IMG/VR virus record: IMGVR_UViG_3300044645_001661
Direction: 5' to 3' (one strand)
Origin: a virus
Lineage: Duplodnaviria > Caudoviricetes
DNA: 64,000 nucleotides
A program made the position numbers and the translations under genes. The notes beneath the pieces were generated by a model that worked only from the letters and a program-made list of their open reading frames with translations, was not told the origin of the DNA and ran no database searches. Of the stretch, positions 796-28,500 are shown piece after piece. Each line of letters begins with the position of its first letter. The stretch's first letter is position 1.

Positions 796-889
796 CCCAC
801 CCATCTTATTGTTGCCCTAAATGCGGAGAACAGATAGGATGGACTGGAAGGCTCTTTCAGTTTCTTCGTATTCCATTACATCGGTGTAA

Positions 890-946
890 GGACAGTTGAA
901 GAACTGGCACAAGGACACTCCATAAACCCTCTGGATGCCTTATAAT
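890..946 (+). promoter_or_regulatory. promoter with box A (GGACAGTT-gaag-AACTGGCAC, 890-910) and -10 TATAAT (941-946)
   Basis: palindromic box ends 31 bp before -10, as at five other sites; no -35 consensus. Confidence 0.75.
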
Positions 947-9835: not shown

Positions 9836-10011
9836 TTTTTAATGTTTTTATATTAAAAAATGTATTAAAAAACATATAATAGTGTTTTTATTATCGTATT
9901 ACATTAGTGTTATATGGTAGTCTTATAGTGTTATTATCTCTTATAATAGTACTGAATCCTTTGGTTATTATACCTTTTATACCTCTGGATCCTTGTGATC
10001 TTAGACTGCGT

Positions 10012-10040
10012 ATTATAGCACAACCGCGAAAAAATGTCAA
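10012..10040 (-). promoter_or_regulatory. leftward sigma70-type promoter TTGACA-17-TATAAT with extended TG
   Basis: plus strand TGTCAA 10035-10040 and ATTATA 10012-10017; perfect consensus. Confidence 0.85.
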
Positions 10041-10071
10041 GCCCCCCGCCCAAAAAATATAAGGACGCGGC

Positions 10072-10100
10072 ATTTTATCACACACGCCCCCGTTTGTCAA
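10072..10100 (-). promoter_or_regulatory. leftward sigma70-type promoter TTGACA-17-TAAAAT with extended TG
   Basis: plus strand TGTCAA 10095-10100 and ATTTTA 10072-10077. Confidence 0.85.
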
Positions 10101-10108
10101 CTCCCAGG

Positions 10109-10329
10109 ATCTCGACGAGACTGCACGGTTATATCTCGACTAGATCACATAATCATATAACACTATCATTATATCATAAGATCTCGACGAGTCATATCAC
10201 AATATAACATCAGTATTATATCATACAATCTAGACGATATCATGTCACAGTATCATCACATAACATCATAATTAGTCACAATTATCTCGACGAGTATCAT
10301 ATATAACATCAATAAGATCTCGACGAGAT
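10109..10329. repeat. six copies of the 13-bp interrupted palindrome ATCTCG-A-CGAGAT
   Basis: starts at 10109, 10133, 10181, 10228, 10284, 10317; 0-2 mismatches; G-poor spacers. Confidence 0.9.
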
Positions 10330-10342
10330 CATGTGATGTCAC

Positions 10343-10371
10343 TTGACAAGACTTGCCGTATCATGTACACT
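10343..10371 (+). promoter_or_regulatory. sigma70-type promoter TTGACA-17-TACACT
   Basis: seen in sequence; perfect palindrome copy centred 43 bp upstream of the -10. Confidence 0.8.
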
Positions 10372-10395
10372 GTACACAGTTCGCACAAAGTTCTC

Positions 10396-10566
10396 ATGGG
10401 TAACACCGCATTCCTGGAAGCACAGAAGCACAAGTATCGCGTCACTCTAGAACTAGACGTTCTTGGAGATTTCGATCCTCATAATATCAACTGGGAGAAG
10501 TTGTTTGATCTTAATCCTGCAGAGAGTGTCAAATCTTATGTCGAAGACCTAGACTATCATTGGTAA
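10396..10566 (+). CDS. small conserved cyanophage-type protein (start ATG 10396)
   Basis: the longer ORF-track start overlaps the promoter; YRVTLELDV...INWEKLFDL. Confidence 0.75.
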   Translation: MGNTAFLEAQKHKYRVTLELDVLGDFDPHNINWEKLFDLNPAESVKSYVEDLDYHW

Positions 10567-10737
10567 CATAACATCATAGCATAAGGGATCCTGATGCGTC
10601 AAGTATGACGCACCCTTATGTGTATAAGTATTTCAAAGCTGGGGAAGTGGCGATGTATTGTCGTCCTCAGGGATACCTCTCCCCTCTTCTGGTTGTCTAC
10701 AAAAGATACATCAGAACGCCCGCAAAACCTGCATTGG

Positions 10738-10795
10738 GTGCCAGTTTGTGAACTGGTCACATGTGGCACAAGGTCCTAGGAGCAGCGGTTATAGT
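10738..10795 (+). promoter_or_regulatory. box A (GTGCCAGTT-tgtg-AACTGGTCAC) promoter, -10 TATAGT 10790-10795
   Basis: palindrome 10738-10760, ending 30 bp before the -10; no -35 consensus. Confidence 0.65.
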
Positions 10796-10819
10796 TGCTG
10801 GGCAAACGCAATTCGACCG

Positions 10820-11023
10820 ATGATTTTTTTGACATCTACCAATCATGGTTGTGTGTATACTCTGTCTCAAGAGGACGGTGATGAGTTGTACTTTGCACCC
10901 ATCTATGCAGACGGAACTGTTAACCTGGAGGAGTTCGCTCCTGTGGATATGAGTACTGTTGACATGGATGACATGGAGGTGTATGATATCCGTAACCGAC
11001 TGGTTGCCCTGTCCAATCTCTGA
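10820..11023 (+). CDS. hypothetical protein, 67 aa (start ATG 10820)
   Basis: downstream of the box A promoter; C-terminal part of ORF-track 10658..11023. Confidence 0.7.
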   Translation: MIFLTSTNHGCVYTLSQEDGDELYFAPIYADGTVNLEEFAPVDMSTVDMDDMEVYDIRNRLVALSNL

Positions 11024-11067
11024 ACTGGCACAAGGGGGTTGACAGGACCCCCACCATCGGTTAAATT
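11010..11067 (+). promoter_or_regulatory. box A (degenerate left half, AACTGGCAC 11023-11031) + TTGACA-17-TAAATT; GGGGG/CCCCC stem brackets the -35
   Basis: seen in sequence; box ends 31 bp before the -10. Confidence 0.8.
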
Positions 11068-11093
11068 TAAATCGTTCACCACTCAACCAAACA

Positions 11094-11558
11094 ATGGGAA
11101 CCCGCTCTCGCATCGGTTACGAACTTCCTGATCACTCTGTGGTTAGTGTTTACTGCCACTGGGATGGTTATGTAGAGAACAACGGTCGCATTCTGGTAGA
11201 GCACTATCAGAACCGCGATGATGTACAAGAACTCATCGATGGTGGTTCAATGTCAACTCTTCGTACCACTCACACCTGGGAGAGTGCTGCTCTTCGGGAT
11301 GAGAACGGCAAGATCATCGAAGATGATGCGGGCAGTTGGTCCTATTCCAACACTCGTGATCCTCAACCACTGTATCATTCTGAGCGTGGTGAGAATAACG
11401 AACCAGATGTCACTGACTTCGATATGTTTGTCTCTGGTAAAATGGGTGGCGAAGAGTATGCTTACCTGTATGATCTCAATGGTAACTGGAAAGCATACAA
11501 GATCGGTTGGGGACCTGTTGAACGTGTGGACATCCCCAACTACGTGACAGCAGCATAA
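11094..11558 (+). CDS. conserved phage protein (GTRSRIG...VYCHWDGY family)
   Basis: widely seen phage motif; function unknown. Confidence 0.85.
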   Translation: MGTRSRIGYELPDHSVVSVYCHWDGYVENNGRILVEHYQNRDDVQELIDGGSMSTLRTTHTWESAALRDENGKIIEDDAGSWSYSNTRDPQPLYHSERGENNEPDVTDFDMFVSGKMGGEEYAYLYDLNGNWKAYKIGWGPVERVDIPNYVTAA

Positions 11559-11601
11559 CTGTCACACTGGTCCTGGGCAAGACGCTAAACTGCCCTATAC
11601 T
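11544..11601 (+). promoter_or_regulatory. box A (GTGACAGCA-gcat-AACTGTCAC) promoter, -10 TATACT
   Basis: box ends 31 bp before the -10; GGGCA/TGCCC stem in the spacer; no -35 consensus. Confidence 0.75.
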
Positions 11602-11622
11602 TCATTCAGTTCAAACAAACCA

Positions 11623-11772
11623 ATGAACTTCACCATTAACGAACTCTCTGCTCTCTCTGATCTAATCTCCTTCCATGATGATTGGGATGAGGTAAGTGAG
11701 CGTGTTGGTTGCAATGTTTATGATCTTTATGAAAAGATCATGGGTGCAATGGATTCTGCAGGGGAGAGTTGA
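11623..11772 (+). CDS. acidic 49-aa protein, not in ORF track
   Basis: read from sequence; follows the promoter at 11596. Confidence 0.7.
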   Translation: MNFTINELSALSDLISFHDDWDEVSERVGCNVYDLYEKIMGAMDSAGES

Positions 11773-11774
11773 TC

Positions 11775-11996
11775 ATGTCACTCTCTAACAAATCAGTCAA
11801 CCGAATTGCTGCTGCACTTGTTGAAGAAGTTACTGAAGAACTTGTTGAGACTGGTGCATGGTTAGATTTCCTCCACACTAACATTGGTGGAATCATCACC
11901 GATAAACTTGGTGAAGTTGATGATGAAGTTCTAGCAGAACTGATTATGTGTGTCGCAGATCGAATTGGTATGAAACCATACACAGATCTCGACTAG
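11775..11996 (+). CDS. acidic hypothetical protein
   Basis: ORF track (first ATG used). Confidence 0.7.
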   Translation: MSLSNKSVNRIAAALVEEVTEELVETGAWLDFLHTNIGGIITDKLGEVDDEVLAELIMCVADRIGMKPYTDLD

Positions 11997-12086
11997 ATGC
12001 GTGTCACGTATCATATCAATCTCGACGAGATACGTGACGCATCACTTGACTAGATCAAATAATCATGTTATTATGATCTAGTCAAC
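11986..12086 (+). promoter_or_regulatory. two 13-bp palindrome copies (11986, 12019) and tRNA promoter TTGACT-17-TATTAT inside nested inverted repeats
   Basis: TTGACTAGATCA/TGATCTAGTCAA and GATGCGT..CACGTATC/GATACGTGACGCATC inverted repeats. Confidence 0.8.
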
Positions 12087-12091
12087 CACAA

Positions 12092-12175
12092 GGGGATGTG
12101 GTGGAATCGGTAGACACAACAGACTTAAAATCTGTCGGAGGCAACTCTGTGGGGGTTCAAGTCCCCCCGTCCCTA
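12092..12175 (+). tRNA. trnL: tRNA-Leu(UAA), no intron, CCA not encoded
   Basis: acceptor GGGGATG/CGTCCCT, anticodon arm ACAGA-CTTAAAA-TCTGT, long variable arm, T arm GGGGG-TTCAAGT-CCCCC. Confidence 0.95.
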
Positions 12176-12235
12176 TTACCTCTTCAATGGTATAATGTAC
12201 CATAAGAGGTCCAAACTCTCCTTCTAGAGGCACTC

Positions 12236-12376
12236 ATGCACGAATCCACGCTTGATATGTTCTGCTCTCATGACAACGACAATCTGGATATTGATGATGC
12301 TTTCCTATGTGCATTTGAGGAAGAAGCGGCTAAGTTAGAAATTACAGTAGATTATTATATGGCAGAGTTCCTGTAA
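12236..12376 (+). CDS. acidic 46-aa protein (EAAKLEITVDYYMAEF), not in ORF track
   Basis: read from sequence; GAGG upstream; motif familiar from cyanophage small genes. Confidence 0.7.
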   Translation: MHESTLDMFCSHDNDNLDIDDAFLCAFEEEAAKLEITVDYYMAEFL

Positions 12377-12458
12377 TATAATGGGGAAGGTGTTTGCCCT
12401 AAAAGTTACACTGTTACGCAGTTAATATTCTTTTAAATTAATGGGTGGATATGGTATC

Positions 12459-12489
12459 AAGACCTGGGGTGGTGCCCAGGTCTTTTTTT
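12459..12489 (+). terminator. intrinsic terminator
   Basis: AAGACCTGGG-gtggtg-CCCAGGTCTT followed by a T run. Confidence 0.85.
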
Positions 12490-12506
12490 ATGTTTTGTAA
12501 CAGACC

Positions 12507-12534
12507 TTGCCAGGGGGTGCTGGTGTGGTATGAT
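12507..12534 (+). promoter_or_regulatory. sigma70-type promoter TTGCCA-16-TG-g-TATGAT
   Basis: directly after the terminator, before ATG 12560. Confidence 0.65.
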
Positions 12535-12559
12535 TTGAAGGTCACCACGGGAGAACCCC

Positions 12560-12691
12560 ATGACTCTGGTTTGTGCCTCTGACATCGCCACCCGCCAACT
12601 GGTGTGGGTGAAGAACGCCACCGCCACTGGTGTGCCAGCTGCAGCACCGTCCCATGTTTGGGCAGATCTCGGTCGCCGTGGTATGATTTGA
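12560..12691 (+). CDS. 43-aa protein (MTLVCASDIATRQLVWV...), not in ORF track
   Basis: read from sequence; CCCC-ATG start context shared with neighbours. Confidence 0.6.
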   Translation: MTLVCASDIATRQLVWVKNATATGVPAAAPSHVWADLGRRGMI

Positions 12692-12712
12692 TTGTTCAAC
12701 ACCTGAACCACC

Positions 12713-12883
12713 ATGATCGCTGATCTCAACGGTTGCTTCCAACGTAATCCCGACATTCTCAAAGATGTTTGTGAGCACCGTGTTCAAATGGCAAACTTTG
12801 TATTAAGTTTTAACGAAAAGGATCCTGTTGAAAGTGCATGGTATCGTAGCGAAATCCGTCATTACAAACTCTATGATGTCTGA
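12713..12883 (+). CDS. 56-aa protein, not in ORF track
   Basis: read from sequence; TTCAACACCTGAACC leader. Confidence 0.6.
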   Translation: MIADLNGCFQRNPDILKDVCEHRVQMANFVLSFNEKDPVESAWYRSEIRHYKLYDV

Positions 12884-12937
12884 TCAGTAACGCTTATGGG
12901 TCAGGGGGTTGACTCCTGACCCACCCCATGCCAAACT
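12882..12937 (+). promoter_or_regulatory. box B (reverse orientation, GATCAG-N5-CTTATG) + TTGACT-17-TG-c-CAAACT; GGGTCAGG/CCTGACCC stem around the -35
   Basis: 12880-12902 is the reverse complement of 15139-15161 with 2 mismatches. Confidence 0.75.
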
Positions 12938-12961
12938 ACGTTTGTTCACCACTGAACCCCA

Positions 12962-13405
12962 ATGATTACCGAAACCGATCTGCAGTTCTTTGAGACCCAC
13001 TATCAAGCGGTTGAGAATCTTGGTATTCTCAATGTGTTTGAAGATCGTGAGGATCGTATTCGCTTCCGTGCCATCTCTAAGATGATGGAAGATCTTCTGG
13101 CACCTAAAAAAGAAAAGATCTCTCTCACTGAAGAAGAAATTCAACCCATCTTCCGCGAGTATCTTAACGCTTATACTTTTGACGGTAAGGTTAAAGTTTT
13201 TAACCGCAAGATTGCTGCTGAAGGTGTTCAATCCTTCCGCAAGAATCCTATTGCAACTGTCATGGGTATTCATGGGCAACTGGTGTATCATGACAACTGC
13301 AATCACAGCATTGTAAAGTCTTTTGATCGCACTGGTAAAACTCTGAAATCGATGATGTCTCAGTATAATGAACTGATCGGTTTTGAGCGGTTCAAGATCG
13401 ACTGA
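12962..13405 (+). CDS. hypothetical protein
   Basis: ORF track; own promoter and TTCACCACTGAAC leader. Confidence 0.8.
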   Translation: MITETDLQFFETHYQAVENLGILNVFEDREDRIRFRAISKMMEDLLAPKKEKISLTEEEIQPIFREYLNAYTFDGKVKVFNRKIAAEGVQSFRKNPIATVMGIHGQLVYHDNCNHSIVKSFDRTGKTLKSMMSQYNELIGFERFKID

Positions 13406-13459
13406 CACATTAAGAACTGTCACAGGGGGGCATCCGTGCCTCCCATCATGCCCTAAGAT
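13402..13459 (+). promoter_or_regulatory. box A (CTGACACAT-taag-AACTGTCAC) promoter, -10 TAAGAT
   Basis: box ends 31 bp before the -10; GGGGGGCA/TGCCTCCC stem; no -35 consensus. Confidence 0.75.
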
Positions 13460-13482
13460 TACTTCGTTCACCACTGAATCCC

Positions 13483-13620
13483 ATGCCTGAACTCTCCTGG
13501 ATTGATGATGTTCCGATGCCCGCAATGTCGGAAGAAGAGTATAATCAATCTGAAGAGCATTATGAAGATTCGGATTGGTGGAATGATCCCAACTGTGTAA
13601 TGTCCCGTCATCACTATTGA
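13483..13620 (+). CDS. acidic 45-aa protein (WNDPN..SRHHY), not in ORF track
   Basis: read from sequence. Confidence 0.7.
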   Translation: MPELSWIDDVPMPAMSEEEYNQSEEHYEDSDWWNDPNCVMSRHHY

Positions 13621-13623
13621 ATC

Positions 13624-13764
13624 ATGTTTGAACTTCTTGCTGCCGCTTACATGATCGGTCAGGTTCAAGTTGGACCTAACATGATCCAAACTAATTACAT
13701 CAACGAAGACAAACAAATCATCACTGTCACTGAAGTGATTCAAGAGGTTCCTAATGCAAATTGA
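13624..13764 (+). CDS. 46-aa protein, not in ORF track
   Basis: read from sequence; fills the gap. Confidence 0.6.
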   Translation: MFELLAAAYMIGQVQVGPNMIQTNYINEDKQIITVTEVIQEVPNAN

Positions 13765-13936
13765 TCGTGATTCTCTCATCGCTGATTATGCTCAGCAGAT
13801 CCTAGATGGGATGGACATGAAGACAATGGAGTGCTTCGTTTATGACACTCTGAAGGACAATCTTTCATCGTATTCTGATGAGGAATTGATTGAAGAAGTG
13901 ACAGAGTATAACCCCGAACTTCTAGAAAATGCCTAA
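13754..13936 (+). CDS. acidic hypothetical protein
   Basis: ORF track. Confidence 0.75.
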   Translation: MQIDRDSLIADYAQQILDGMDMKTMECFVYDTLKDNLSSYSDEELIEEVTEYNPELLENA

Positions 13937-14012
13937 AGTATAAATCATTACAGGATGGTTGGTATCTTGATTGTCATTGATACCATAAAACTCTACTGAG
14001 TGCTTCCCATCC

Positions 14013-14070
14013 TACCCAATTCTTGAACTGGCACATACCGCTTGACATGCTGCCAGGGATCGCTTAATCT
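14013..14070 (+). promoter_or_regulatory. box A (degenerate left half, AACTGGCAC 14026-14034) + TTGACA-17-TAATCT
   Basis: box ends 31 bp before the -10. Confidence 0.8.
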
Positions 14071-14141
14071 GTTATCAACAAGCGGGGGTGAAGCATCCCG
14101 CTCAAAACACTTCACTCAAACCCTTACATTGTGATTTAATT

Positions 14142-14369
14142 ATGTCTCAGTTCGCTTTTACCTCTTCTGCCATCGAAAGCATCTCTGATGTGAATGATGG
14201 TAAAGTGACCATCACCTTCAACGGTGGTCGTGAGTATACCTACGGTGTGCAAGATGTTGAGATGTTCGTGTCTCAACTGAGCACCGTGATTGCAGAACAG
14301 CAGTCGGTGGGTCGTTTTGTAAACAATGCTATCAAGACTGAGCAACTGCTTGCAGTGACCGCCGCCTGA
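14142..14369 (+). CDS. KTSC-domain protein (start ATG 14142)
   Basis: SSAIESI...VTITFNGGREYTY...SVGRFVNNAIK fits the KTSC pattern. Confidence 0.7.
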   Translation: MSQFAFTSSAIESISDVNDGKVTITFNGGREYTYGVQDVEMFVSQLSTVIAEQQSVGRFVNNAIKTEQLLAVTAA

Positions 14370-14424
14370 TAGTACAATACGGGAGGAGGCAACTCCTCCC
14401 ATTCCACAATCAACATAAAGAACC

Positions 14425-14583
14425 ATGGAACAATTTTTCGACACCGAAGAGTTCACCATCTTTGATCTTGTTGATGAATGCCAACCTCGTGAAGAATTAA
14501 CTTCTGAGGCAAAGCGTATGCTTAATGAAGTTGATGAGTATGATGACTATTCAGAAAGTTCAACCGATTTTGATTATGATTAA
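14425..14583 (+). CDS. very acidic 52-aa protein, not in ORF track
   Basis: read from sequence; GNRA-hairpin leader at 14381-14400. Confidence 0.65.
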   Translation: MEQFFDTEEFTIFDLVDECQPREELTSEAKRMLNEVDEYDDYSESSTDFDYD

Positions 14584-14641
14584 TCTCGACTAGTTAATCA
14601 TCATAATCTCGTCGAGTTATATCATAACATCTCGACGAGAT
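14583..14641. repeat. three 13-bp palindrome copies at 23-bp spacing
   Basis: ATCTCGACTAG 14583, ATCTCGTCGAG 14606, ATCTCGACGAGAT 14629. Confidence 0.85.
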
Positions 14642-14676
14642 ACACACAACACACCATTGAAATTCTTCTCTTTAAC

Positions 14677-14811
14677 ATGGAAACTCGTTCGCTTCTTCTC
14701 TCGCTCCTTCGTAAAGGTCAAACTGGTGAAGAAATTCTCCAGATTCTGGAAACTATCACTAGTGGCGATGATGATAGTGATGGTGCTACCTTGAACCCAA
14801 TCGATTTCTGA
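14677..14811 (+). CDS. 44-aa protein (LLRKGQTGEEILQILE), not in ORF track
   Basis: read from sequence. Confidence 0.65.
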   Translation: METRSLLLSLLRKGQTGEEILQILETITSGDDDSDGATLNPIDF

Positions 14812-14815
14812 TACA

Positions 14816-15004
14816 ATGGAAACCGCATTCGTGACGCCTGTATCTAAAAAAGCAAAGAACCGATTTGCTAATCTTATGGGTGGAATTGATGAATGTATTG
14901 TAGAGCAGCATAAAGGTGATAAAGTATTTCTTACAAGTGTGAATGGTAAAAATCACTTCTGGGTTAATATAAACAAAGATCCAGACTGGATCATAGAGTT
15001 CTAA
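14816..15004 (+). CDS. conserved small protein (AKNRFANLM...KVFLTSVNGKNHFWVN)
   Basis: ORF track; terminator follows. Confidence 0.75.
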   Translation: METAFVTPVSKKAKNRFANLMGGIDECIVEQHKGDKVFLTSVNGKNHFWVNINKDPDWIIEF

Positions 15005-15015
15005 GATCATACCAC

Positions 15016-15041
15016 ACCCCGCAACTAGCGGGGTTTTTTTT
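15016..15041 (+). terminator. intrinsic terminator
   Basis: ACCCCGC-aacta-GCGGGGT + T8. Confidence 0.9.
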
Positions 15042-15081
15042 ATACTTAAGTATTGTATGCTTCCCACCCCTCCCGCCCTCT

Positions 15082-15197
15082 AGCGTAGGGGCGGTGCCCC
15101 CTAAAAGTCAACCCCTGGCTTATAAGCATTTCTGATGCGACCCATAAGCGAGACTGATCAGAAAACCCGTTGCAGGGTGCCCCCGATGCTGTAGGAT
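15082..15197. promoter_or_regulatory. divergent promoter pair around two tandem box B sites (15121-15137, 15143-15159)
   Basis: leftward TTGACT (15106-11)-18-TACGCT (15082-87); rightward TTGCAG (15170-75)-16-TAGGAT (15192-97). Confidence 0.65.
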
Positions 15198-15220
15198 TCG
15201 ATCAACGCCAACCCACCCCC

Positions 15221-15835
15221 ATGGCACACACCGATTCGATCATCGCAATGTATTTCCAGAGCAACACTCTGGATCGGCAAACTGGTGCCCAATGGTATAA
15301 CAATGCCTATGGCATTTGTGTTACTTTGGGCGAAAAGTATGGTGTTCATTCTGACATCGTTGCAGGTGTTATCGCTGCACTTTCTCCTAACAACAAATGG
15401 GAGAGAAATGTAGAGGATGCTGAGGCAATGATCAAAGCATGGGCATACGAAATCTCCTATGATTCGGTTGCAGTTTGTTCCTACTCTGCCAACAAAGACA
15501 AGGCACAAACTATTCTCGATTTGCAACTTAATCGTGAGCAGATTGTTAAAGTTTTGCGTGGCAACAAAACTATTGCTTTCTTCCTTTGTATTGCTAACAA
15601 TGGTGATAGCGATTCTCCCTGCATTGATGGTCACGCTTACAACATTTGGAACGGAACTGTAACTAACCTGAAAGAGGTTCCTTCTATGTCAGACAAAACT
15701 TTCCGCATGATTCAAGATGCCTACCGTGACGCTGCTAAGTTAATCTCTGAGGTGTCGGGATCTTATCATTCAGCGGCACAGATTCAAGCGATCACCTGGG
15801 TTTCGTATCGCAGGATACACAAAGGTCTAGTGTGA
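15221..15835 (+). CDS. putative HhH-fold DNA glycosylase-like protein (start ATG 15221)
   Basis: GAQWY, AGVIAALSPNNKW, RGNKTIAFF, CIDGHAYNIW, AQIQAITWV. Confidence 0.6.
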   Translation: MAHTDSIIAMYFQSNTLDRQTGAQWYNNAYGICVTLGEKYGVHSDIVAGVIAALSPNNKWERNVEDAEAMIKAWAYEISYDSVAVCSYSANKDKAQTILDLQLNREQIVKVLRGNKTIAFFLCIANNGDSDSPCIDGHAYNIWNGTVTNLKEVPSMSDKTFRMIQDAYRDAAKLISEVSGSYHSAAQIQAITWVSYRRIHKGLV

Positions 15836-15892
15836 CGGATTGTTACGGGGCACCGCCAGCACCCACGGGTGCCCCATCCCATCCTGTAGAAT
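15831..15892 (+). promoter_or_regulatory. box C (TGTGA-N7-TTAC) + GGGGCACC/GGTGCCCC stem + -10 TAGAAT
   Basis: near-identical layout recurs at 16916-16967. Confidence 0.65.
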
Positions 15893-15917
15893 TTCAGAGT
15901 CAACACGAGAGAGACCC

Positions 15918-16103
15918 ATGCGGTTCTACATCCTCCCCGACCACACCGATTTCGTTCCTGCTGATCAGGAATGGTTCTACACTCAAGATGAGGCATACGA
16001 TGCCGCGTTTGATTGGAGTGCTGAACTCGGCGGAGTTCCTGTTAAGATTGGCACCTTCAATCTTGGCGGTCCTAGTTACACTGTGGCGGTTGTAACTGCC
16101 TGA
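15918..16103 (+). CDS. 61-aa protein (start ATG 15918)
   Basis: part of ORF-track 15840..16103 downstream of the promoter. Confidence 0.7.
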   Translation: MRFYILPDHTDFVPADQEWFYTQDEAYDAAFDWSAELGGVPVKIGTFNLGGPSYTVAVVTA

Positions 16104-16115
16104 GGGTAACAACAA

Positions 16116-16135
16116 CGGGGGGTGAAATTCCCCCC
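16116..16135 (+). repeat. 20-nt hairpin CGGGGGGTGAAATTCCCCCC, identical copy at 17147-17166
   Basis: exact duplicate; each lies ~25-30 nt before an ATG. Confidence 0.85.
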
Positions 16136-16163
16136 AATTCTTTACATTCAACCCCACAAGATC

Positions 16164-16325
16164 ATGGCAATCGGTATCACCATCCGTTACCAAACTCCCT
16201 ACAATCAGTGTGAGTGGAGAACGCAAACTTTCCCCACAATTGATGAGGCAAACCGCATGGTAGATTTCTATCGTTCCTGTGGTTCTCCTGCTGAGGTTGT
16301 TACTTTCCGTGAGGGGCAAAAATGA
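16164..16325 (+). CDS. 53-aa protein (IRYQTPYNQCEWR...RMVDFYRSCGSPA)
   Basis: start ATG 16164 after the hairpin. Confidence 0.7.
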   Translation: MAIGITIRYQTPYNQCEWRTQTFPTIDEANRMVDFYRSCGSPAEVVTFREGQK

Positions 16326-16432
16326 AAACATTTATGATCATTTTTGCAGTTGCGTTTCTATTCTCTCCAGCAGTTAGAAACACTACCGCGAACACTCTAC
16401 ACACCGCCGCCGCCATCATTTCTGCAGAATGA
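16322..16432 (+). CDS. 36-aa hydrophobic peptide, not in ORF track
   Basis: ATGA overlaps at both ends. Confidence 0.55.
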   Translation: MKTFMIIFAVAFLFSPAVRNTTANTLHTAAAIISAE

Positions 16433-16596
16433 CACACTATCCCTCCCGCCTTCGGTTTAAACTTCCCGCCGAAAGAATCACTGAACTTGTTGAAAAGAAT
16501 TGCACAATCCTAAGTGATGCTGAATGGATGCAATTTTTTGAAGAAATTAACACTATTTCCGATTGTAACGATTCGCCCGTTCTGGTCACGACCTGA
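16429..16596 (+). CDS. 55-aa protein, not in ORF track
   Basis: ATGA overlap. Confidence 0.5.
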   Translation: MTHYPSRLRFKLPAERITELVEKNCTILSDAEWMQFFEEINTISDCNDSPVLVTT

Positions 16597-16659
16597 CCGC
16601 CTGACCGTCTAGGATACTAACAAGCGAGGCAAGGGACCTCGCTCAACCCCAAACCGACT

Positions 16660-16920
16660 ATGTTCGCTTCGATCATCCGCACCGCCATCCGCTCCCACCT
16701 GATCCAGAACGGTCCCCAGACCTGCTCTGATCTTGTGCGGGCGATGGGTTTGGATCCCCGCCGCCATAAGGGCACCATTCACGCCCTTATGGTTGATCTT
16801 GAGACTGCAGGCACCCTGTCTGCCACCCGTGCTGATAATGGCAAGCGGGATCTGTGGTTTGTGAATTTCGATCAAATCCGCAAGCGGGATCGTATCATCG
16901 CTGCCCTCTCTGGAGTGTGA
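16660..16920 (+). CDS. winged helix-turn-helix DNA-binding protein
   Basis: IRSHLIQNGPQTCSDLVRAMGL...TIHALMVDLETAGTL...W: three helices plus a beta wing. Confidence 0.7.
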   Translation: MFASIIRTAIRSHLIQNGPQTCSDLVRAMGLDPRRHKGTIHALMVDLETAGTLSATRADNGKRDLWFVNFDQIRKRDRIIAALSGV

Positions 16921-16967
16921 ACGATTGTTACAGGGGCATCGCTAAGGGTGCCCCTACCCTCTAAGAT
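16916..16967 (+). promoter_or_regulatory. box C (TGTGA-N7-TTACA) + GGGGCATC/GGTGCCCC stem + -10 TAAGAT
   Basis: TTAC ends 31 bp before the -10. Confidence 0.7.
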
Positions 16968-17005
16968 ACATTCAAGCGGGACACACCCGCACTGCTCTAA
17001 ACATC

Positions 17006-17140
17006 ATGTTCGATCCCTTTGTTTGTGATCAGCAGATTGAAGAATACATCCCCACAGAGGATGATTGGCATTCAATCTACGATGATGATCAGGAACTGGA
17101 AATGTACTCTCTAGAGTGTTGCTTCGGTCCTGAGGAATGA
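17006..17140 (+). CDS. very acidic 44-aa protein, not in ORF track
   Basis: read from sequence. Confidence 0.65.
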   Translation: MFDPFVCDQQIEEYIPTEDDWHSIYDDDQELEMYSLECCFGPEE

Positions 17141-17191
17141 AACAATCGGGGGGTGAAATTCCCCCCTTCTCAAACTAACCCAATTCTCGCC

Positions 17192-17518
17192 ATGTTCCCC
17201 ACCGTTCTTCTCAACAATCCGATGATTGAAAAGTATAATGAACTGCGGCAGGAAGTTCTTTCTAACGAAACCCTGCAGCAGGTTCTTTATACTCTCGCCA
17301 CGGTTCTAGGTGTTATCGTAGGCGTTAGCGTTTGGTTCTACAATCGTGCCCGCCAATGGTATAACGAAGGTGGCAAAGATCTTTTCTACTTTGGTATCAA
17401 TACTAAGGCAGGAAAGGATGATGAACAGTTCGGCGTTGCTGTAGGCAAACTCTACGTGGGTTTGTATAACAATGTCGTTCACATTGGGCTCACCGATCAC
17501 AATGGGTGCCTGCCTTAA
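17192..17518 (+). CDS. membrane-anchored hypothetical protein (start ATG 17192 or 17221)
   Basis: hydrophobic VLYTLATVLGVIVGVSVWFY segment. Confidence 0.7.
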   Translation: MFPTVLLNNPMIEKYNELRQEVLSNETLQQVLYTLATVLGVIVGVSVWFYNRARQWYNEGGKDLFYFGINTKAGKDDEQFGVAVGKLYVGLYNNVVHIGLTDHNGCLP

Positions 17519-17916
17519 TTAACACTTATGGGGTGCTGAGTTCGTTATACTTAGCACCCCTACATTCGTGCGTAAGTGTAAATGTGACAGTCTGTGACAG
17601 ACAGTTGACGGTATAACGGTATCGTGATAGCGGCGGGCCGTGCCCCCTACCCCCCCTTAGCTAAAATCGATGACTCCCCTAACCTACAGAGGTGACAAAA
17701 CGAGTGAGTGATTTCATGTCCATAAGAAAAAAATTTACCAAAAATTTTCTGCCCCATAAGGTCATCAAAAACCCTCACATAAGTCTTTACGTGCAACTGG
17801 AGTATGTTATAATAAGTCTCCGAGAATCTCTATGGATTCTCATATCACACGCCCTCAAAGAATTTTCCGAGGGGGCAAAGAGGTGATATATAATGATGTA
17901 ATGAGAAAGTGAGGCG

Positions 17917-20619: not shown

Positions 20620-22536
20620 ATGTCACTAGTAAATTTCGCATCTTTAGATTTCGATCAAGTAAAGGAATCTATAAAAAGTTATCTAAGATCTAATTCAACC
20701 TTTACAGATTACGATTTTGAAGGATCTAATCTGTCTATTCTGATTGATGTATTAGCATATAACACATATATCTCTTCATATAATGCTAATATGCTATCCA
20801 ATGAGGTATTCTTGGATGGTGCAACACTCAGAGAGAACGTAGTATCTTTAGCAAGAAACGTTGGATATTTACCAAAATCCATAACAGCACCAAGGGCACT
20901 TATATCTTTTTATATTGATGTATCCGAATTTGAAAGTAATCCAGTATCCATAACTTTAAAGCAAGGTATTGTATGCACCACTTCTATTAATTTTGGCGAT
21001 AGAAGTTTTGTATTCTCAATTCCATCAGACATAACAGTTCCAGTAACTAATGGTTTTGCATTATTTGAAAATATTGAAATTTATGAAGGTGTTTATACCA
21101 TAAACAATTTTGCAGTTGATAGTTTTAATAAAAATCAAAAATTTATTTTAAATAATGCTAATATAGATACATCAACTGTTAGAGTTGCTGTAAGAGAAGA
21201 TAAGAATAGTTCAATATCTAGAGTATATAAATTTGTCGATAATATTACAACAGTAAAGAGTACTGATAATGTATTCTTCTTAAATGAAATTGAAGACCAA
21301 AGATATGAAATTATCTTTGGTGATGGAACTTTTGGTAGTAAATTAGAAAATAATAATTATATTGTTTCATCATATATTATAACCAGTGGTGAATTAGGAA
21401 ACGGTATTGAAGATTTTACATTCTCTGGTAGACTTTTTGATAATAATGGATCTCCAATTCTCTCTACAACTCCACCAGCAATATTAGTATCGCGTCCGTC
21501 TCAAGGTGGTTCTAGTATTGAGACAGTTTCCTCTATTAAAAAATATGCCCCTAGGGTATATGCATCACAAAATAGGGCAGTTACTGCAACAGATTATGAA
21601 GCATTGATACCTCAGATTTACCCAGAAACAGAATCCGTTTCTGTTTTTGGTGGAGAAGAACTAGATCCTCCAAAATATGGTAAGGTTTTTATTACAGTTA
21701 AACCAAAAAATGGTTCATATGTACCAAATAATGTAAAAGATAATTTAAAAATACAACTAAGAAATTATTCTGTGGCAGGAATAATTCCCGAATTTATTGA
21801 TTTAAAATATCTTTATATTGAATATGACGCTAGAGTTTATTATAACACCAATTTAGTTCAGAACAGTGAAGATGTTAGGACTTTGGTGACATCAAATATT
21901 ATTAAGTATTCAAAGTCTAGTGAATTAAACAAATATGGTTCTAGATTTAAGTACAGTAAATTTTTAAAGTTAATAGACGATTCTAGTGATGCTATAACAT
22001 CTAATATTACTAGAGTTTCAATGAGAAGAGATATGAAGATTCAAATTGGATCTTTTGCTGAATATGAAATATGTTTTGGTAATGAATTCCATATTAAAAA
22101 TAGATCTGGTTATAACATAAAATCTTCTGGATTTACTGTAAGTGGAATATCTGGAACTGTATATCTTGCGGATACTCCACCACAGAATGAATCTGAGACA
22201 ATCGGTAATATATTCTTATTCCGATTTGATGGACAATCAAAACCAGTTATTATAAGAAAATCTGTAGGAAATATTGATTATAAAAAAGGAGAGATTAGAA
22301 TTAACTCTATCAATATTATTGATACTGTTAAAAAATCATTTGGAGACAATATTGTTCAGTTCTCTGCAATACCAAGATCAAATGATATTATTGGAAAACA
22401 GGACCTTTATATCCAATTAGATGTAAATTCATCCACAGTCAATATGATTTCTGATGTCATTTCTTCTGGTATAGATATATCAGGATCACAATATATAGTA
22501 TCATCAAGTTATTTAAATGGAGATTTAGTAAGGTAG
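20620..22536 (+). CDS. g6: baseplate wedge subunit gp6
   Basis: LDFDQVK...DYDFEGSNLSILIDVLAYNT; SQNRAVTATDYE. Confidence 0.95.
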   Translation: MSLVNFASLDFDQVKESIKSYLRSNSTFTDYDFEGSNLSILIDVLAYNTYISSYNANMLSNEVFLDGATLRENVVSLARNVGYLPKSITAPRALISFYIDVSEFESNPVSITLKQGIVCTTSINFGDRSFVFSIPSDITVPVTNGFALFENIEIYEGVYTINNFAVDSFNKNQKFILNNANIDTSTVRVAVREDKNSSISRVYKFVDNITTVKSTDNVFFLNEIEDQRYEIIFGDGTFGSKLENNNYIVSSYIITSGELGNGIEDFTFSGRLFDNNGSPILSTTPPAILVSRPSQGGSSIETVSSIKKYAPRVYASQNRAVTATDYEALIPQIYPETESVSVFGGEELDPPKYGKVFITVKPKNGSYVPNNVKDNLKIQLRNYSVAGIIPEFIDLKYLYIEYDARVYYNTNLVQNSEDVRTLVTSNIIKYSKSSELNKYGSRFKYSKFLKLIDDSSDAITSNITRVSMRRDMKIQIGSFAEYEICFGNEFHIKNRSGYNIKSSGFTVSGISGTVYLADTPPQNESETIGNIFLFRFDGQSKPVIIRKSVGNIDYKKGEIRINSINIIDTVKKSFGDNIVQFSAIPRSNDIIGKQDLYIQLDVNSSTVNMISDVISSGIDISGSQYIVSSSYLNGDLVR

Positions 22537-22543
22537 TAATCAT

Positions 22544-25500
22544 ATGTTAAATTCCCGCGTAAAAATTAGAAATCTCGTAGAAGGTCAAATCCCAGAATTT
22601 CTAAGAGAGTCATATCCAGAATTTCAACAATTATTATCAGAATACTACAAATCTTCAGAGTCTCAAGGAGCACCTTTAGACTTACTCAATAATATTGATC
22701 AATATGTAAAATTAGATAATCTTGCAGAAATCACTTATTATTCTGAATTATCTGATGCTATTGGTGAAGACGACGATATAATAACAGTAGAAAGTACCGA
22801 TGGATTCCCATCCAACTATGGTCTTATACAAATAGATAATGAAGTTATTTTATATGAATCCAAGACAAATACAACTTTTGTAAATTGTTCTAGAGGATTT
22901 AGTGGAATTACTTCTTACAGAGATGTTGATAAAGATAGTTTAATTTTTTCCATCACTAACTCGGATTCACACTCTTCTGGATCTGTAGTATACAATTTAT
23001 CAAATTTCTTCCTGAGAGAACTATTCAAGAAATTTAAATCTCAATATACGCCAGGATTTGATAATATTGATTTTTATCCAGGTATAAATGAGAAGTTATT
23101 TATTTCAAGAATAAAAGATTTTTATTCTTCTAAAGGTGCCATAACATCATTTGAGATTTTATTTAAATCTTTATATGGAGAATTGGTTAAGGTTATTAAA
23201 CCAAAAGATTTTATTGTTCAACCATCTGACGCAGATTACAGAATTACAAGAGATCTTGTCGTAGAACAGTATGTTGGAAATCCAGAAAATTTATTGAACC
23301 TTACACTTTTCCAAGATCAAACTGATTTTATTACTAAGGCATCTGGAACAATAACAAAAATAGAAAAAATATATAGAAATTCAAAGGAATACTATCAACT
23401 TAGTTTAGACTATAACCCAGATACTGAGGAATTTGAATTTACAATCCACCCCAAAACTATAATTGTATCTGATGTAACTGAAAATCAAACATATATTGAT
23501 GTCGATTCAACATTAGGGTTTCCACCATCAGGAACACTATCAATAATAGTAGATGGATTAGAATATCTTGTAGATTATTCTGAAAAATCATCAACTCAAT
23601 TTTTAAATTGTAGTGGTCTTCCGTTTGTTCCTAGAGGAACTAAATTGGAAACATTAGATTATGCATATGCTAAAGATAGATTTGGTAATGAAGTTAGAGT
23701 TAAAATTACTGGAGTTATTTCATCTTTAGATTACGACTCAGAAAAAACTTATTATTACAGAGAAGATGACGAAATTCAATTAGTTTCTTTGGGTAAGTTG
23801 GGGAATACTCCTAAACATAATGAATGGGTATTTAATATTACTCCAACCTATGATGTTGTTAGTATCACACAATTAACAAATAAAATAAACGGTGCTGCTA
23901 GATTTAGATTAGTAACAAAAGATGAAAATATTTTTACTGTTGGTGATCCAGCAATTATCAAATCTAATACTGGTGTAGTTTTAGATGCTTTTGTAATTTC
24001 TGTTAGTGATAAAAATACAATTGATATCAATTTAACTGTAGATGTAGATAAGACTTTAAAATATACAATTACTAAAGATATATCAAAAGTAAACTGCATA
24101 AACTATTCTGAATTAAATACCGTATCATCAGATATTCAAAATGTCTATATTGATAAAGATGATGTTTATGTGACATCTCCTTCTTTACCAAATTATTATA
24201 ATGTTCCCCTAACATTAAAGGATTATTCTATAACATTTGGTGGTGAATTAAATGGTGAAGATTTAGTTTTAGGTGATCATCCTTTTTATACTGGTGATTC
24301 AATTTTCTATAAATCACAAGGACCTTTAAATAGACTCAACATTGAAGATGGTATTTACTATGTAAAAAAAATAAATGAAAATACTATTAAATTAGCATCT
24401 AGCAAATCAAACTTATACAACAATATCTTTATTTCACTATTTGGTACTATTAGTGATAATAAAATACAATTATCTAGATTTTATAATTTAAGACCAAAAT
24501 CTCAAAAATTGGTCAGAAAAATATCACCCACAGTAGATGAAGGAATCACCTATGAAACTGAATCTGGACAAATTGGTATTTTAAAGAATGGGGTTGAAAT
24601 TTTAAATTATAAATCTAATGATTTTGTTTATTATGGTGAAATAGAAGACTTAAAAGTGACCTCTTCTGGGGATTCAAATTATGATATAATTAATCCACCT
24701 ATTTTACACATAGAAGATTCTATTGGTTTTGGTGCAACTGGTGTATGTAATATTGTAGGATCTTTAAAAAAAATTAATATAATTGATGGTGGATATGGAT
24801 ACACAACTGAACCAAAGGTAACTATAATTGGTGGAAATGGATCAGGTGCTTCTGCTAAGGCAAATTTAATCTCGATTACAAATTCAGTAAAGTTTAATGC
24901 TGGAGACCAATATGATCAAGTAAATCTATCAAATAACACAATAGGATTTACAACAGATCATAGATTTTTTAATTCAGAAAGAATAGTATATAAATCTGGA
25001 ATTCAAACATCAATAGGTGGATTGATAAATGATTCAATTTATTATGTTGGAGTAATTGATAGATTTACAATTAAATTGTACTCAAATTTACGTGACTCTA
25101 TTAGTGGTGTAAACACAATATCTTTCGCCACATATGGTGATGGATTACATACAATAGACTCATTTGAAAAAAAGAAAAAGATATCTTCTATAGACATTTT
25201 ATCTCCTGGAAAGGATTATCAAAATAAAACTTTATTTTTTAGCCCATCTGATGTAAATATTTACTCCGATATTATTACAATAAAAAATCATAGTTATAAA
25301 GACAAAGAAATAGTAAATTATACTTCTACAAATAATTTAATTTCTGGACTTTCTTCTACTGCAGATTATTATGTAAAAGTTATTGATATTGATCATATTA
25401 AATTATCTTTAGTTGGTATTGGAACTTCTATTTCTGAGGACTTTTATTTTAGTAAAAATAGATTTGCAACTTTAGCAACGAAGGGATCTGGAACTCATAG

Positions 25501-28500
25501 ATTAGTATACAAACCCATATCTATCAGTATAGAATCTCCAGTAGGTGTATCTACATTCCCTGGACAAGATTTTAATGCAAAAGTACAACCAATATTCAGA
25601 GGAAGTATTGCTTCAATATCATTGAGTAATAGAGGAAGTAACTATGGTGATCAAGAAATTATAAACTACAATAGGCAACCATCAATTACACTATTAAACG
25701 GTGATTCTGCTTTAATTACACCCATTGTTTCAAACTCTGGGCAAATTATTGATGCAATTATTAATAATCGTGGTTTTTATTATAATAGTCCACCAGAATT
25801 AGTTGTAGATGGTGACGGTGTTGGTTGTATTTTAACACCAGTTATAAAAGATGGTAAAATAATTGAAGTAAAAATAATTAATACTGGTTTTGGTTATAAT
25901 AAAAATAATACTTTCATCAGAGTTTTATCTGCTGGATCTGGGGCAAAATTTGAAACCCAGATAAAAAACTGGAGAATAAACTTAGTAGAAAGACTAATAG
26001 ACACAAATCAAATAAGATTTGATGATGGACTTCTTTCTCTTGGAAAAAATGAGAGATATGGATTGCAATATTGCCATTCATATGTTCCTAGAGAGTTAAG
26101 AAGAAAGAGTTTATCAACATCTTTAGGTGAAGACGGAACAGTAATTTATAGAAATGACTTGCTAAATGATGATCTAACATTAAAATATCATTCCCCAATT
26201 ATAGGATGGGCATATGATGGTAATCCAATTTATGGTCCCTATGGTTATAGTGATAGAGAAGGTGGTATAGTAAAGAGGATGGTATCTGGATATGTACTTA
26301 GACCAAAGCCAGACAGACCAGCATCTTATCCAGTTGGTTTATTTGTTGAAGACTATGAATTTTCTGGAGAAGGAGATCTAGACATCTATAATGGAAGATA
26401 TTGTAAGACCCCAGAGTTTCCTAACGGTGTATATGCATATTTTTCAACTATAAATGCACAAAAAGATTCTTCTGGTATTTTTAATGGATTTTTAAAACCA
26501 GTATTTCCATATTTTATTGGAAATTATTACAAATCAACTCCAGTAAGATTTAATTTTGATCAATTATCAAATCAAGATATTATTGATATAAATCAAACAA
26601 AATGGTTAAGAAATACAACTCCATATTCAATACTTTTAAATAATAGTTACTATGATGGTGTAATTCAACCAGATAAATTTGTACAAAGTTATCCTATAGT
26701 TTCTTCTGCGGTTCCTGGATTTGTTAATGAATTAAAGGTTGTTAATTTTGGTGATAATTATTCCATTAATGATAATATTTTCTTCAACAATCAGGGAACC
26801 AGTGGTTCTGGTGCATATGCATCCATCAAAGAAATTTCTGGAAGATCTGTTCGTAATATAGTATACACATCTTCTAAAGTTGATAACGTTGAACTTATTC
26901 CATACAATAATAGTGGAACTTTTATTGGATTTGCAACAGCACCACACAATTTAACGGCATCGGATTTAATCAAAATACAGAATCTTTCAAATTTAAATAG
27001 TCAATTTGATGGAGTTTATAAGGTTGGTATATCCACAAATCAATTAACATTAACTGAAAATATTGCAGATTCCTCAATAACTGGAATAGTTACTTATATC
27101 AATGTTATTGGATCATTAACTATTCCTGATCTCAATATAAATGACATATTGGGAATTGGCACTGAGCAGGTTAAAGTATTATCAGTTGATACTAATAGTT
27201 CTAGAATAAAAATTAGAAGAGCATATAATTCAACAATTGGGGTAGCACATTCTCAAGGAATAGTTGTTAAAGAATTCCCAAGAAAGTTTTTTGTTAATGT
27301 TGGTCTCACTAATATAACAAATTACAAATTAAATAAAGAAATTTATTTTTATCCAGCAGAATCTATTTCAATTCCAAGTGAAAACATTTTAACATATTCA
27401 AATCCAGTAGATTTTTCTGCTTGGTCAACATATGTAGTAGGATCTGGAACTACAATCACAGTAAATTATTATGATCAACAAGCACCAAATAATACTTTTT
27501 CTGCAGCAAAAGTTCAAGTTGGTATTGTAACTGCAACAGAAATATCTGGTATATTAAATGGACCTGTAACTTTAGCTACAAATAATTATACAATATCAGC
27601 ATTTTTAAAGGGACAATTTGGTGGAGAAATAGTTTATTTGATTGTTGAAGATGGATCTAATTTTATCGCACAACAAATAGTATTAAGTAGTTCATGGAAA
27701 AGATATTCAGTATCTGGTTCAGCAAATGCAGGACCACATAATTTCTTTGTTGGTGGTTGGGGACCAGAAGGGTATACAATACCAGAGTCTACATTTTATG
27801 TTTGGGGGGCACAGATAGAATCGGGAACAGTATTAACTCCTCATATCAAAACTGAATCGTCTATTGTATTAAGATCCGCGAATGAAGTTGGAACAACTTA
27901 TTTTTCAAATCCAGGATTTGGTATTAAAGAAGTAATCATTCCACAAAATTCAATTTACTTACCTGGGCATAATTTGAATACTGGTGATACTTTAACTTAT
28001 AAAAATAACGGAAATAGTTCCATCCAGGTTTCATTTGCTACTACAACATTCCCGCTTCCAAATAATAGTGAAGTGTATGCAGTAAGATATTCGGATACCT
28101 TTATTGGAATATCCACTATAAAAGTTGGTCTAGGTACTACTGGATCTTATGTTGGAATTGGAACTACTGCACTAGGAAATATTTTAACATTTTCTGGATA
28201 TGGTACTGGTTTAGATCACAGTTTTGTTACAAATTACCAAGATACTATTTCTGGAGATATTTACAAAAAAGATGCCGTAGTAACTACAGATAGGGAACAT
28301 GGATTAAGGGTATCTGATATAGTTGACATTAATATAATTTCAGGAATTCAAACTACTGTTTATATCAGTTATGATGATTTAAACAGAAGAATGTTGGTAA
28401 ATCCAAGATCATTTACAGCATTAAATGTTGACTCTGTAGAAAACTTAATAACTATAGCAAATCATGGATTTGAATTGGGATCTAAAGTAATTCACAATTC

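Follow-up and report, generated by a model that had tools for sequence, protein, structure and literature searches.

Single-gene promoter cassettes with upstream boxes at a nearly fixed distance in a freshwater T4-like cyanomyovirus: a candidate role for a host PlmA-family regulator

This work describes a set of promoter cassettes in IMG/VR virus record IMGVR_UViG_3300044645_001661, a 64,000-nucleotide stretch of viral DNA (referred to here as the window) that derives from an uncultured freshwater T4-like cyanomyovirus. A GC-rich island in the window holds early genes in one-gene units, each with its own promoter, and the cassette content of this island varies among relatives. The proposed cassette layout comprises an upstream box, ∼30 nt often containing a GC hairpin at the place of the −35 element, a −10 hexamer, a short leader, and the gene. 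Because a good −10 is usually not accompanied by a −35 here, these promoters would most likely depend on a box-bound protein, which, sitting ∼41 bp before the −10 (near −53), would act like a class-I activator and recruit host RNA polymerase. For the most widespread box, box A, the most likely reader would be a host PlmA-family regulator, which is already in place when phage protein synthesis begins, because the box A half-site is that of the host element CGRE1, which is bound in vitro by PMM1637. Boxes B and C would be lineage-restricted alternative sites for other factors, placed in almost the same register; box D consists of direct repeats arrayed beside some promoters. Taken jointly, a reading of these units as early cassettes resembling the promoter/stem-loop (PeSL) units of T4-type phages, with an activator at the box, box A read by a host PlmA-family regulator, and boxes B and C as alternatives, is in our judgment a reasonably probable account of the sequence evidence.

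A preliminary description of the window had placed six copies of box A at a fixed 30 to 31 bp before the −10, and all of its coordinates and distances proved correct (Table 1). In a pattern search of the window, the right half AACTGKCAC is exact at 902, 11023, 11557, 13415, and 14026 on the plus strand and at 10738 on the minus strand, where it constitutes the left half of a copy with a 1-nt insertion (AACTGGTCAC). In each of the six copies, the CAC end is 30 to 31 bp from the start of the downstream −10, and the dyad centre lies 41 to 41.5 bp upstream. Inside the window, it is also correct that TTGACA accompanies only the two promoters with degenerate left halves (11010 and 14013); in the former, which precedes the phrog_1987 gene, TTGACA (11039-11044) occupies the loop of a hairpin at 11034-11052. 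The promoter at 13402 contains a GC hairpin at 13425-13444 (−15 kcal/mol), and homology to the related contig L012 resumes precisely at 13415, in the box A right half. Two further observations concern box A-like sequences and the leaders. At the right island edge, direct repeats of box A-like left halves (GTGACAGTctGTGACAGACAGTTGAC, 17584-17612) are followed by a GC-rich hairpin. The leaders at 11072-11086, 12942-12956, 13464-13478, and 12693-12708 share a GTTCACCACTGAAC-like sequence (5-bp stem, 4-nt loop) just before the ATG, and such leaders occur behind promoters with different boxes; in many relatives, GTTCACCAC or GTCAACCAC stands at the leader position before the ATG.

Comparison was made with 82 related loci, 80 of them fetched from IMG/VR. 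The phrog_1987 gene (11094-11558, 154 amino acids) has homologs in 102 phage records, the nearest being those of the freshwater phages S-SRM01 and DSL-LC03, both of which have intergenic box A right halves 30 to 31 nt before TATAAT-like hexamers, with unrelated spacers. In ∼60 loci, the promoters of phrog_1987 orthologs consist of the dyad, ∼30 nt (often with a GC hairpin), the −10, and a GTTCACCAC or GTCAACC leader. Of the 502 distinct right-half sites in the 82 loci, 218 have a TANNNT that begins at an offset of 30 or 31, compared to ∼5 at each other offset. The consensus of 194 sites is tgTGACAsTT-N4-AAsTGkCACA, followed by aGGGG...CCCC. Whole-genome counts, compared with a reversed-pattern control, gave 26 forward and 13 reverse matches in S-SRM01 (control, 1 to 2; clustered at 32 to 90 kb) and 12 plus 10 in S-PM2 (control, 1; mostly within the 'ORFanage'), with smaller excesses in Bellamy, MED4-213, S-SKS1, DSL-LC03, and Syn9 (in Syn9, 7 versus 0). 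In whole genomes, the matches concentrate in small-gene regions. Box A, which the preliminary description did not recognise, is not new but a general early-promoter dyad of T4-like cyanophages, i.e., a known kind of element that recurs across cyanomyoviruses and whose half-site is that of host CGRE1.

A 2016 ISME J study of Syn9 and P-TIM40 by Doron et al. reportedly found a novel element that controls the early genes of Syn9 and is conserved among T4-like cyanophages. Very probably box A is that element; to our knowledge, no reader of the 2016 element has been reported. The two agree in lying 5′ of small early-region genes and in being conserved across T4-like cyanophages, with box A sites present in Syn9 and S-PM2. 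Beyond that element, the present window adds boxes B, C, and D, each present in only one of the five complete phages tested.

The preliminary description also held that the upstream box replaces the −35 element, and this is supported in the relatives, where only 36 of 194 box A promoters match TTGACA in at least four of six positions at proper spacing. A rule by which a degenerate left half is offset by TTGACA fails over the same 194 sites (rho = +0.12, not significant). The box A spacers fold with a mean minimum free energy of −8.8 kcal/mol, compared to −4.0 kcal/mol for shuffled sequences, and z is below −2 in half of them. Box A could in principle act as RNA, for instance as the 3′ hairpin of an upstream transcript that serves as a terminator or processing signal: it is palindromic, it overlaps upstream stop codons, and a GC hairpin follows about half of the copies. 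However, no T-run follows box A, degeneracy is frequent in left halves whereas right halves and their spacing from the −10 persist, and the symmetric positions do not covary for pairing (at the s positions, the non-complementary combination C/C is the commonest, with 86 cases, and the complementary C/G is rare, with 6). We consider an RNA role highly improbable and have rejected the RNA hairpin for lack of covariation; because the arms do not change together to keep pairing, the pattern argues for recognition of box A as double-stranded DNA.

The same dyad geometry is found in host promoters, namely those of Yfr2/Cyano-1-type sRNA genes of many cyanobacteria. When one genome per prokaryotic species was scanned for the strict dyad, ∼28 of the 80 loci listed were cyanobacterial, and a search of 301 cyanobacterial-phylum genomes found the exact dyad in 32 (control, 0). 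At ∼50 host loci, the dyad lies 31 to 32 nt before a TATTCT or TATCCT −10, followed by a conserved short transcript resembling a small RNA (sRNA). Three of these transcripts match Rfam Cyano-1 and start with GTGTGAGGAG. The transcript 3′ of the dyad in Nostocales has no Rfam match and is a related AGGAG-containing sequence; as a separate observation, this highly conserved transcript, tGCAAGGAGTGATACCACTTCAC...TGTTTGTTACAAG, stands behind the dyad and −10 at a series of Nostocales loci (L091, L112, L114, L130, and L215-L237) and may be a divergent Yfr2-type sRNA. In picocyanobacteria, Cyano-1 promoters carry G(T)GnCAGTTG where box A has its left half, together with a degenerate right half whose end precedes the −10 by ∼32 nt. 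An everted palindrome of the same half-sites, ACTGkCAC-N1-2-GTGmCAGT, is present in 33 of 151 picocyanobacterial genomes (control, 7). Among 20 scanned loci, it precedes Cyano-1 by 51 to 52 nt in 11 and by 16 nt in another 3. This everted palindrome replaced an earlier pattern for CGRE1, GTTR-N3-GTG-NN-CAC-N3-YAAC, which gave only coding-like matches. A Cyano-1 search in two further families, which are probably not picocyanobacteria, gave no matches. One picocyanobacterial genome, unlike its relatives, carries two box A-type dyads 14 kb apart (G494 C1:114042-128316; L252 and L254), which may be phage-derived DNA or a contaminating phage contig.

According to Lambrecht et al. 2018 (PMC6191309), CGRE1 is a 21/22-nt palindrome with GTTG/GTTA flanks that starts 55 to 57 nt upstream of yfr2 and is linked to induction by nitrogen starvation and high light. 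The same paper reports that PMM1637, a GntR/PlmA-type protein, binds CGRE1 in pull-down and electrophoretic mobility shift assays and that its R50A mutant loses binding. The everted picocyanobacterial palindrome fits CGRE1 as described there. As far as that description goes, CGRE1 and box A share the same 9-bp half-site (GTGmCAGTT/AACTGkCAC), a −10 without a clear −35 is common to both promoter types, and the promoter-distal half of box A sits where the promoter-proximal half of CGRE1 does, at ∼−65 to −55. The coincidence is limited to this distal half, and in position and layout the elements differ, as the 22- to 24-bp box A dyad ends ∼43 nt upstream of the presumed transcription start site (TSS). 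CGRE1 is described only for host sRNA promoters; box A on phage DNA is a predicted site. No GntR gene was found among the ten neighbouring genes scanned beside host dyad sites or in five complete cyanomyovirus genomes; from the latter result, a GntR-type reader would be the host's.

For box B, a pattern search gave 5 matches in the window compared to 0.77 expected, and the box centres lie 41 to 42 bp before the −10s at 12932 and 15192. The sites first described at 10580, 12882 (reversed), 15121, and 15143 were borne out, including the lack of a clear −10 at 10580. Box B is a quasi-palindrome (CATMAG-N5-CTKATG), which accounts for the reversed copy at 12882; there, the TGA of the box is the upstream gene's stop codon, and a hairpin includes TTGACT (12909-12914). 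The tandem promoter at 15121 has TTGCAG (15170-15175) and an extended −10, TGTAGGAT (15190-15197), and is conserved in L003, L005, L009, and L012. The 27 distinct copies in related loci have the consensus (GTCAACCCCTGACC)CATAAG-N5-CTGATC(aGTCAGGGGGTTGAC), and TANNNT follows CTGAT by 33 nt in 11 of them. Box B often stands between the inverted repeats GTCAACCCCTGACC ... GGTCAGGGGGTTGAC (12882-12925; L017, L050, L062, and others), of which the 3′ arm gives the −35 TTGAC; the window copy at 12882 has an inverted box and the 3′ repeat arm alone. Among the five complete phages, only DSL-LC03 has box B, and 151 cyanobacterial genomes show no enrichment (11 matches; control, 9).

Box C occurs in its full form, GTGTGAM-NN-WTTGTWAC, at 15830 and 16915 and as a half copy at 16562; taken by itself, the half motif shows no enrichment across the window (11 matches versus 8.5 expected). 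The copy at 15830-15846 (GTGTGACGGATTGTTAC) contains the upstream stop codon, and that at 16915-16931 (GTGTGAACGATTGTTAC) overlaps the stop codon of the winged-helix gene discussed below. From the TTAC end to the −10, the distances are 31 bp (16962), 42 bp (15888), and 41 bp (16610). In related loci, all 15 copies are on the coding strand, with the −10 at 29 to 31 nt (9 copies) or 39 nt (5 copies), and the 39-nt class supports the proposal that some copies sit one helical turn further upstream. The copies, their distances, and the helical shift all stand as first described, but the centres lie 38.5 and 49.5 bp upstream, not 41 to 44 bp. Box C is also readable as a pair of 8-nt direct repeats, separated by 2 nt, that match HLR1 in 6/8 and 7/8 positions in reverse orientation, and it falls inside the −66 to −45 zone where RpaB activates (bioRxiv 10.1101/443713). 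The box C variant (TGTGA for TGTAA) has 0 matches in 151 picocyanobacterial genomes, so we regard this likeness as resemblance only. Relatives conserve boxes B and C in almost one register; both boxes are lineage restricted, with no host counterpart found.

The island also encodes an 86-amino-acid winged-helix protein, a candidate phage DNA-binding regulator on the basis of 404 homologs and a predicted structure. Its AlphaFold2 model (mean predicted local distance difference test score, 80) has Foldseek matches to MarR, ArsR, TFE-alpha, and Z-alpha winged-helix domains (template modeling scores of 0.56 to 0.69; E values of ∼1e-3 to 1e-2). Such a phage-encoded regulator, or a protein packaged in the virion, might read the boxes, which would then mark delayed-early or middle classes or shut-off operators. 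The gene is conserved within the island and has box C copies on both sides, 6 loci have it together with box C, boxes B, C, and D are lineage restricted with no host counterpart for B and C, and a cyanophage MarR-type factor is known elsewhere (PMC9692554). On the other hand, the gene was not found in DSL-LC03, which has boxes B and C, or in S-SRM01, which has box D arrays, and 20 loci have the gene without box C, which weakens its case as an obligatory reader of box B, C, or D. In addition, box A is present in all cyanomyovirus lineages tested, and its half-site has both a host element and a known host binder. We regard a phage-encoded or packaged reader as an unlikely alternative, though a less unlikely one than the RNA role considered above.

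Several points weigh against a host PlmA-family protein as the activator of early cassettes. The half-sites of box A are head-to-head with N4, whereas those of CGRE1 are tail-to-tail with N1-2, and one dimer need not bind both; this difference in arrangement is the main reason for our caution. The head-to-head dyad is not enriched in picocyanobacteria (5 of 121 genomes; control, ∼20), the CGRE1 sequence used here was reconstructed from the verbal description in PMC6191309 and from genome scans, and neither box B nor box C has a host counterpart in the 151 genomes searched for each. Contigs from lake metatranscriptome libraries match 10804-11536 patchily at 99 to 100% identity; since they cover patches only and cannot reveal transcript starts, and since DNA carry-over is possible, early timing and TSS positions are inferred only, as are activation and the identity of every binding protein. 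It is a more tentative proposal, made from the sequences, that early transcription in T4-like cyanophages is plugged into host PlmA (GntR) through rearranged CGRE1 half-sites, with boxes B or C swapped in for box A or box D arrays added in some cassettes of this freshwater lineage, so that their inputs would differ; this is possible, but we would not call it likely.

Box D, on the other hand, is a directly repeated array of the 11-mer ATCTCGACGAG and not a fixed-distance operator. The window has 18 matches compared to 0.8 expected, in three arrays (10109-10329, 11986-12031, and 14583-14641). Its last copies are indeed centred 43 and 44 bp before the −10s at 10366 and 12069, as first described, but they end arrays of direct repeats rather than forming one operator; array 1 leads into a promoter with TTGACA (10343-10348) and TACACT (10366-10371) and an ATG at 10396. 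At least three copies of ATCTCGACGAG are found in 49 of 83 sequences (the 82 related loci and the window), mostly spaced by 24 to 33 bp, and a fixed distance to TTGAC and the −10 is seen, among these 83, in the window only. The ten S-SRM01 copies all fall within 5.5 kb of the homologous island. The geometry of 41 to 44 bp proposed for all boxes holds for boxes A and B and the last box D copies, and box C departs from it. The associated proposal of a multi-input code is partly supported, with at least three sequence classes (A, B, and C) conserved at nearly one register, box A being of a known kind and box D an array. As a side observation, tRNA-Leu(TAA) has its own box D-type sigma-70 promoter (12046-12175). 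Scarcity of the host Leu-TAA tRNA confers resistance to Syn9 (PMC11726456), and a phage copy in the early region may matter to host range.

Comparison of the cassettes with PeSLs, which are documented in the T4-type phages RB49/phi1, T4/PST, and KVP40/nt-1 (PMC2839356, PMC4122927), had been suggested and is apt: a stable GC hairpin is present in about half of the box A spacers, and cassettes vary between relatives. PeSLs are repeated units of promoter and stem-loop between small genes of hyperplastic regions, as in the island, and the gene content varies likewise. They differ in that the PeSL stem-loop lies 5′ of near-consensus sigma-70 −35 and −10 elements with N17, whereas here the hairpin lies between box and −10, at the −35 position, and most promoters have no −35. 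In another reading, the boxes would mainly be recombination substrates of mobile cassettes (PeSL-type shuffling), conserved through copying of a 70- to 90-bp unit with no dedicated binder. Close relatives differ in cassettes, box A (13415) and start codons mark where homology resumes, and the common leaders (GTTCACCAC) and repeated stem-loops show that parts of cassettes are copied; alignment blocks against L003-L012 end at boxes or start codons (e.g., 12712 and 13415), a pattern that faster intergenic drift would also produce. However, phages with unrelated spacers keep only the box and the −10 at constant distance, and copying within phages cannot explain why host sRNA promoters have the same dyad geometry. 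Copying alone is improbable, and we continue to favor a bound activator. The cassettes also resemble T4 middle promoters, in which a −10 is combined with a specific upstream box in place of the −35. The MotA box (TGCTT core), however, is centred near −30 and read by MotA/AsiA; the boxes here have other sequences and lie ∼41 bp before the −10, near −53, and cyanomyoviruses are without alt, modA/B, motA, and asiA (PMC2984593).

Assignment of the window to a freshwater T4-like cyanomyovirus is based on its T4-type baseplate and neck genes, on gp6 (58% identity to a Synechococcus myovirus homolog), on the lack of a near relative among GenBank phages by megablast, and on 24 lake-water metagenome runs that contain nearly the whole stretch. 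The island has 44 to 55% GC, compared to ∼30% for the genome, and is bordered by packed AT-rich small early genes on the 5′ side and the baseplate module on the 3′ side. Five independent IMG/VR contigs (L003, L004, L005, L009, and L012) show synteny over both borders and the same GC step, so the island is not an assembly artefact; these contigs together with the 24 lake runs rule out a chimera. All relatives show this GC step (L001, L004, L005, L009, L012, and L013). Compared to L004, island DNA is 83 to 86% similar and the baseplate genes 71%, which suggests recent exchange or another constraint, e.g., host-like codon use early in infection.

Table 1. Positions of promoter cassettes, arrays, and genes in the window
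Feature	Position	Strand	Details
Box A promoter outside island	889-946	+	Dyad 889-910; −10 TATAAT 941-946; ATG 970
GC-rich hyperplastic early-gene island	~10100-17900	+	From composition, open reading frames, and synteny; ~20 one- or two-gene cassettes
Box D array 1	10109-10371	+	Six direct ATCTCGACGAG copies; AT-rich ATCAYATAACA-type sequence
Box B copy	10580-10596	+	CATAAG-N5-CTGATG; inside long imperfect hairpin ~10579-10620; no clear −10
Box A promoter	10738-10795	+	GTGCCAGTT-tgtg-AACTGGTCAC 10738-10760; −10 TATAGT 10790-10795; ATG 10820
Box A promoter, degenerate left half	11010-11067	+	Right half 11023-11031; −10 TAAATT 11062-11067; ATG 11094
Box A promoter	11544-11601	+	GTGACAGCA-gcat-AACTGTCAC 11544-11565; no −35; −10 TATACT 11596-11601; ATG 11623
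Box D array 2	11986-12175	+	Two copies; promoter TTGACT 12046-12051/TATTAT 12069-12074; tRNA-Leu(TAA) 12092-12175
Box B promoter, box reversed	12882-12937	+	Box 12882-12898; weak −10 CAAACT 12932-12937; ATG 12962
Box A promoter	13402-13459	+	Right half 13415-13423; −10 TAAGAT 13454-13459; ATG 13483
Box A promoter, degenerate left half	14013-14070	+	Right half 14026-14034; TTGACA 14042-14047; −10 TAATCT 14065-14070; ATG 14142
Box D array 3	14583-14641	+	Three copies at 23-bp spacing; ATG 14677 downstream; no convincing −10
Tandem box B promoter	15121-15197	+	Boxes 15121-15137 and 15143-15159 (22 bp apart); ATG 15221 (DUF7178 gene)
Box C promoter	15830-15893	+	GTGTGACGGATTGTTAC 15830-15846; GC hairpin; extended −10 TGTAGAAT 15886-15893; ATG 15918
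Half box C promoter	16556-16615	+	ATTGTAAC 16562-16569; −10 TAGGAT 16610-16615; ATG 16660
86-amino-acid winged-helix protein, candidate phage DNA-binding regulator	16660-16920	+	Homologs; predicted structure
Box C promoter	16915-16967	+	GTGTGAACGATTGTTAC 16915-16931; hairpin 16933-16955; −10 TAAGAT 16962-16967; ATG 17006
gp25	~20219		Baseplate module, 3′ side of island
gp6	20620-22536		Baseplate; Pfam
gp8	34203		Pfam
gp13-type neck protein	44544		Pfam

Other features lie in and around the island. Ahead of the first box D array, the window (9836-10100) and L012 (8000-8215) both have an AT-rich spacer full of repeats (runs of TTATA and TATAAT-like sequence) together with a conserved C-rich segment; this stretch may be a strong promoter or resemble an origin. 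The stem-loop GGGGGG-TGAAATT-CCCCCC occurs twice (16117-16135 and 17148-17166), after stop codons and ∼26 to 29 nt before the next ATG, with no recognisable promoter, as an intergenic cassette of a different kind. In the baseplate module, two giant open reading frames (3,876 and 2,502 amino acids; 22544-34174 and 35793-43301) flank gp8, 3′ of gp6.

These findings bear on how T4-like cyanophages, in which alt, modA/B, motA, and asiA are missing (PMC2984593), start transcription. The CGRE1 half-sites in box A make the host PlmA regulator a concrete and testable candidate for the switch of early infection. If the PlmA reading is true, the onset of infection would be tied to host physiology, and the protein involved would be the same one that activates Yfr2 sRNAs in nitrogen starvation and high light. 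The presence of alternative boxes at one register suggests that early cassettes may be rewirable, which bears on host range and on the effects of light and nutrients in lakes and oceans.

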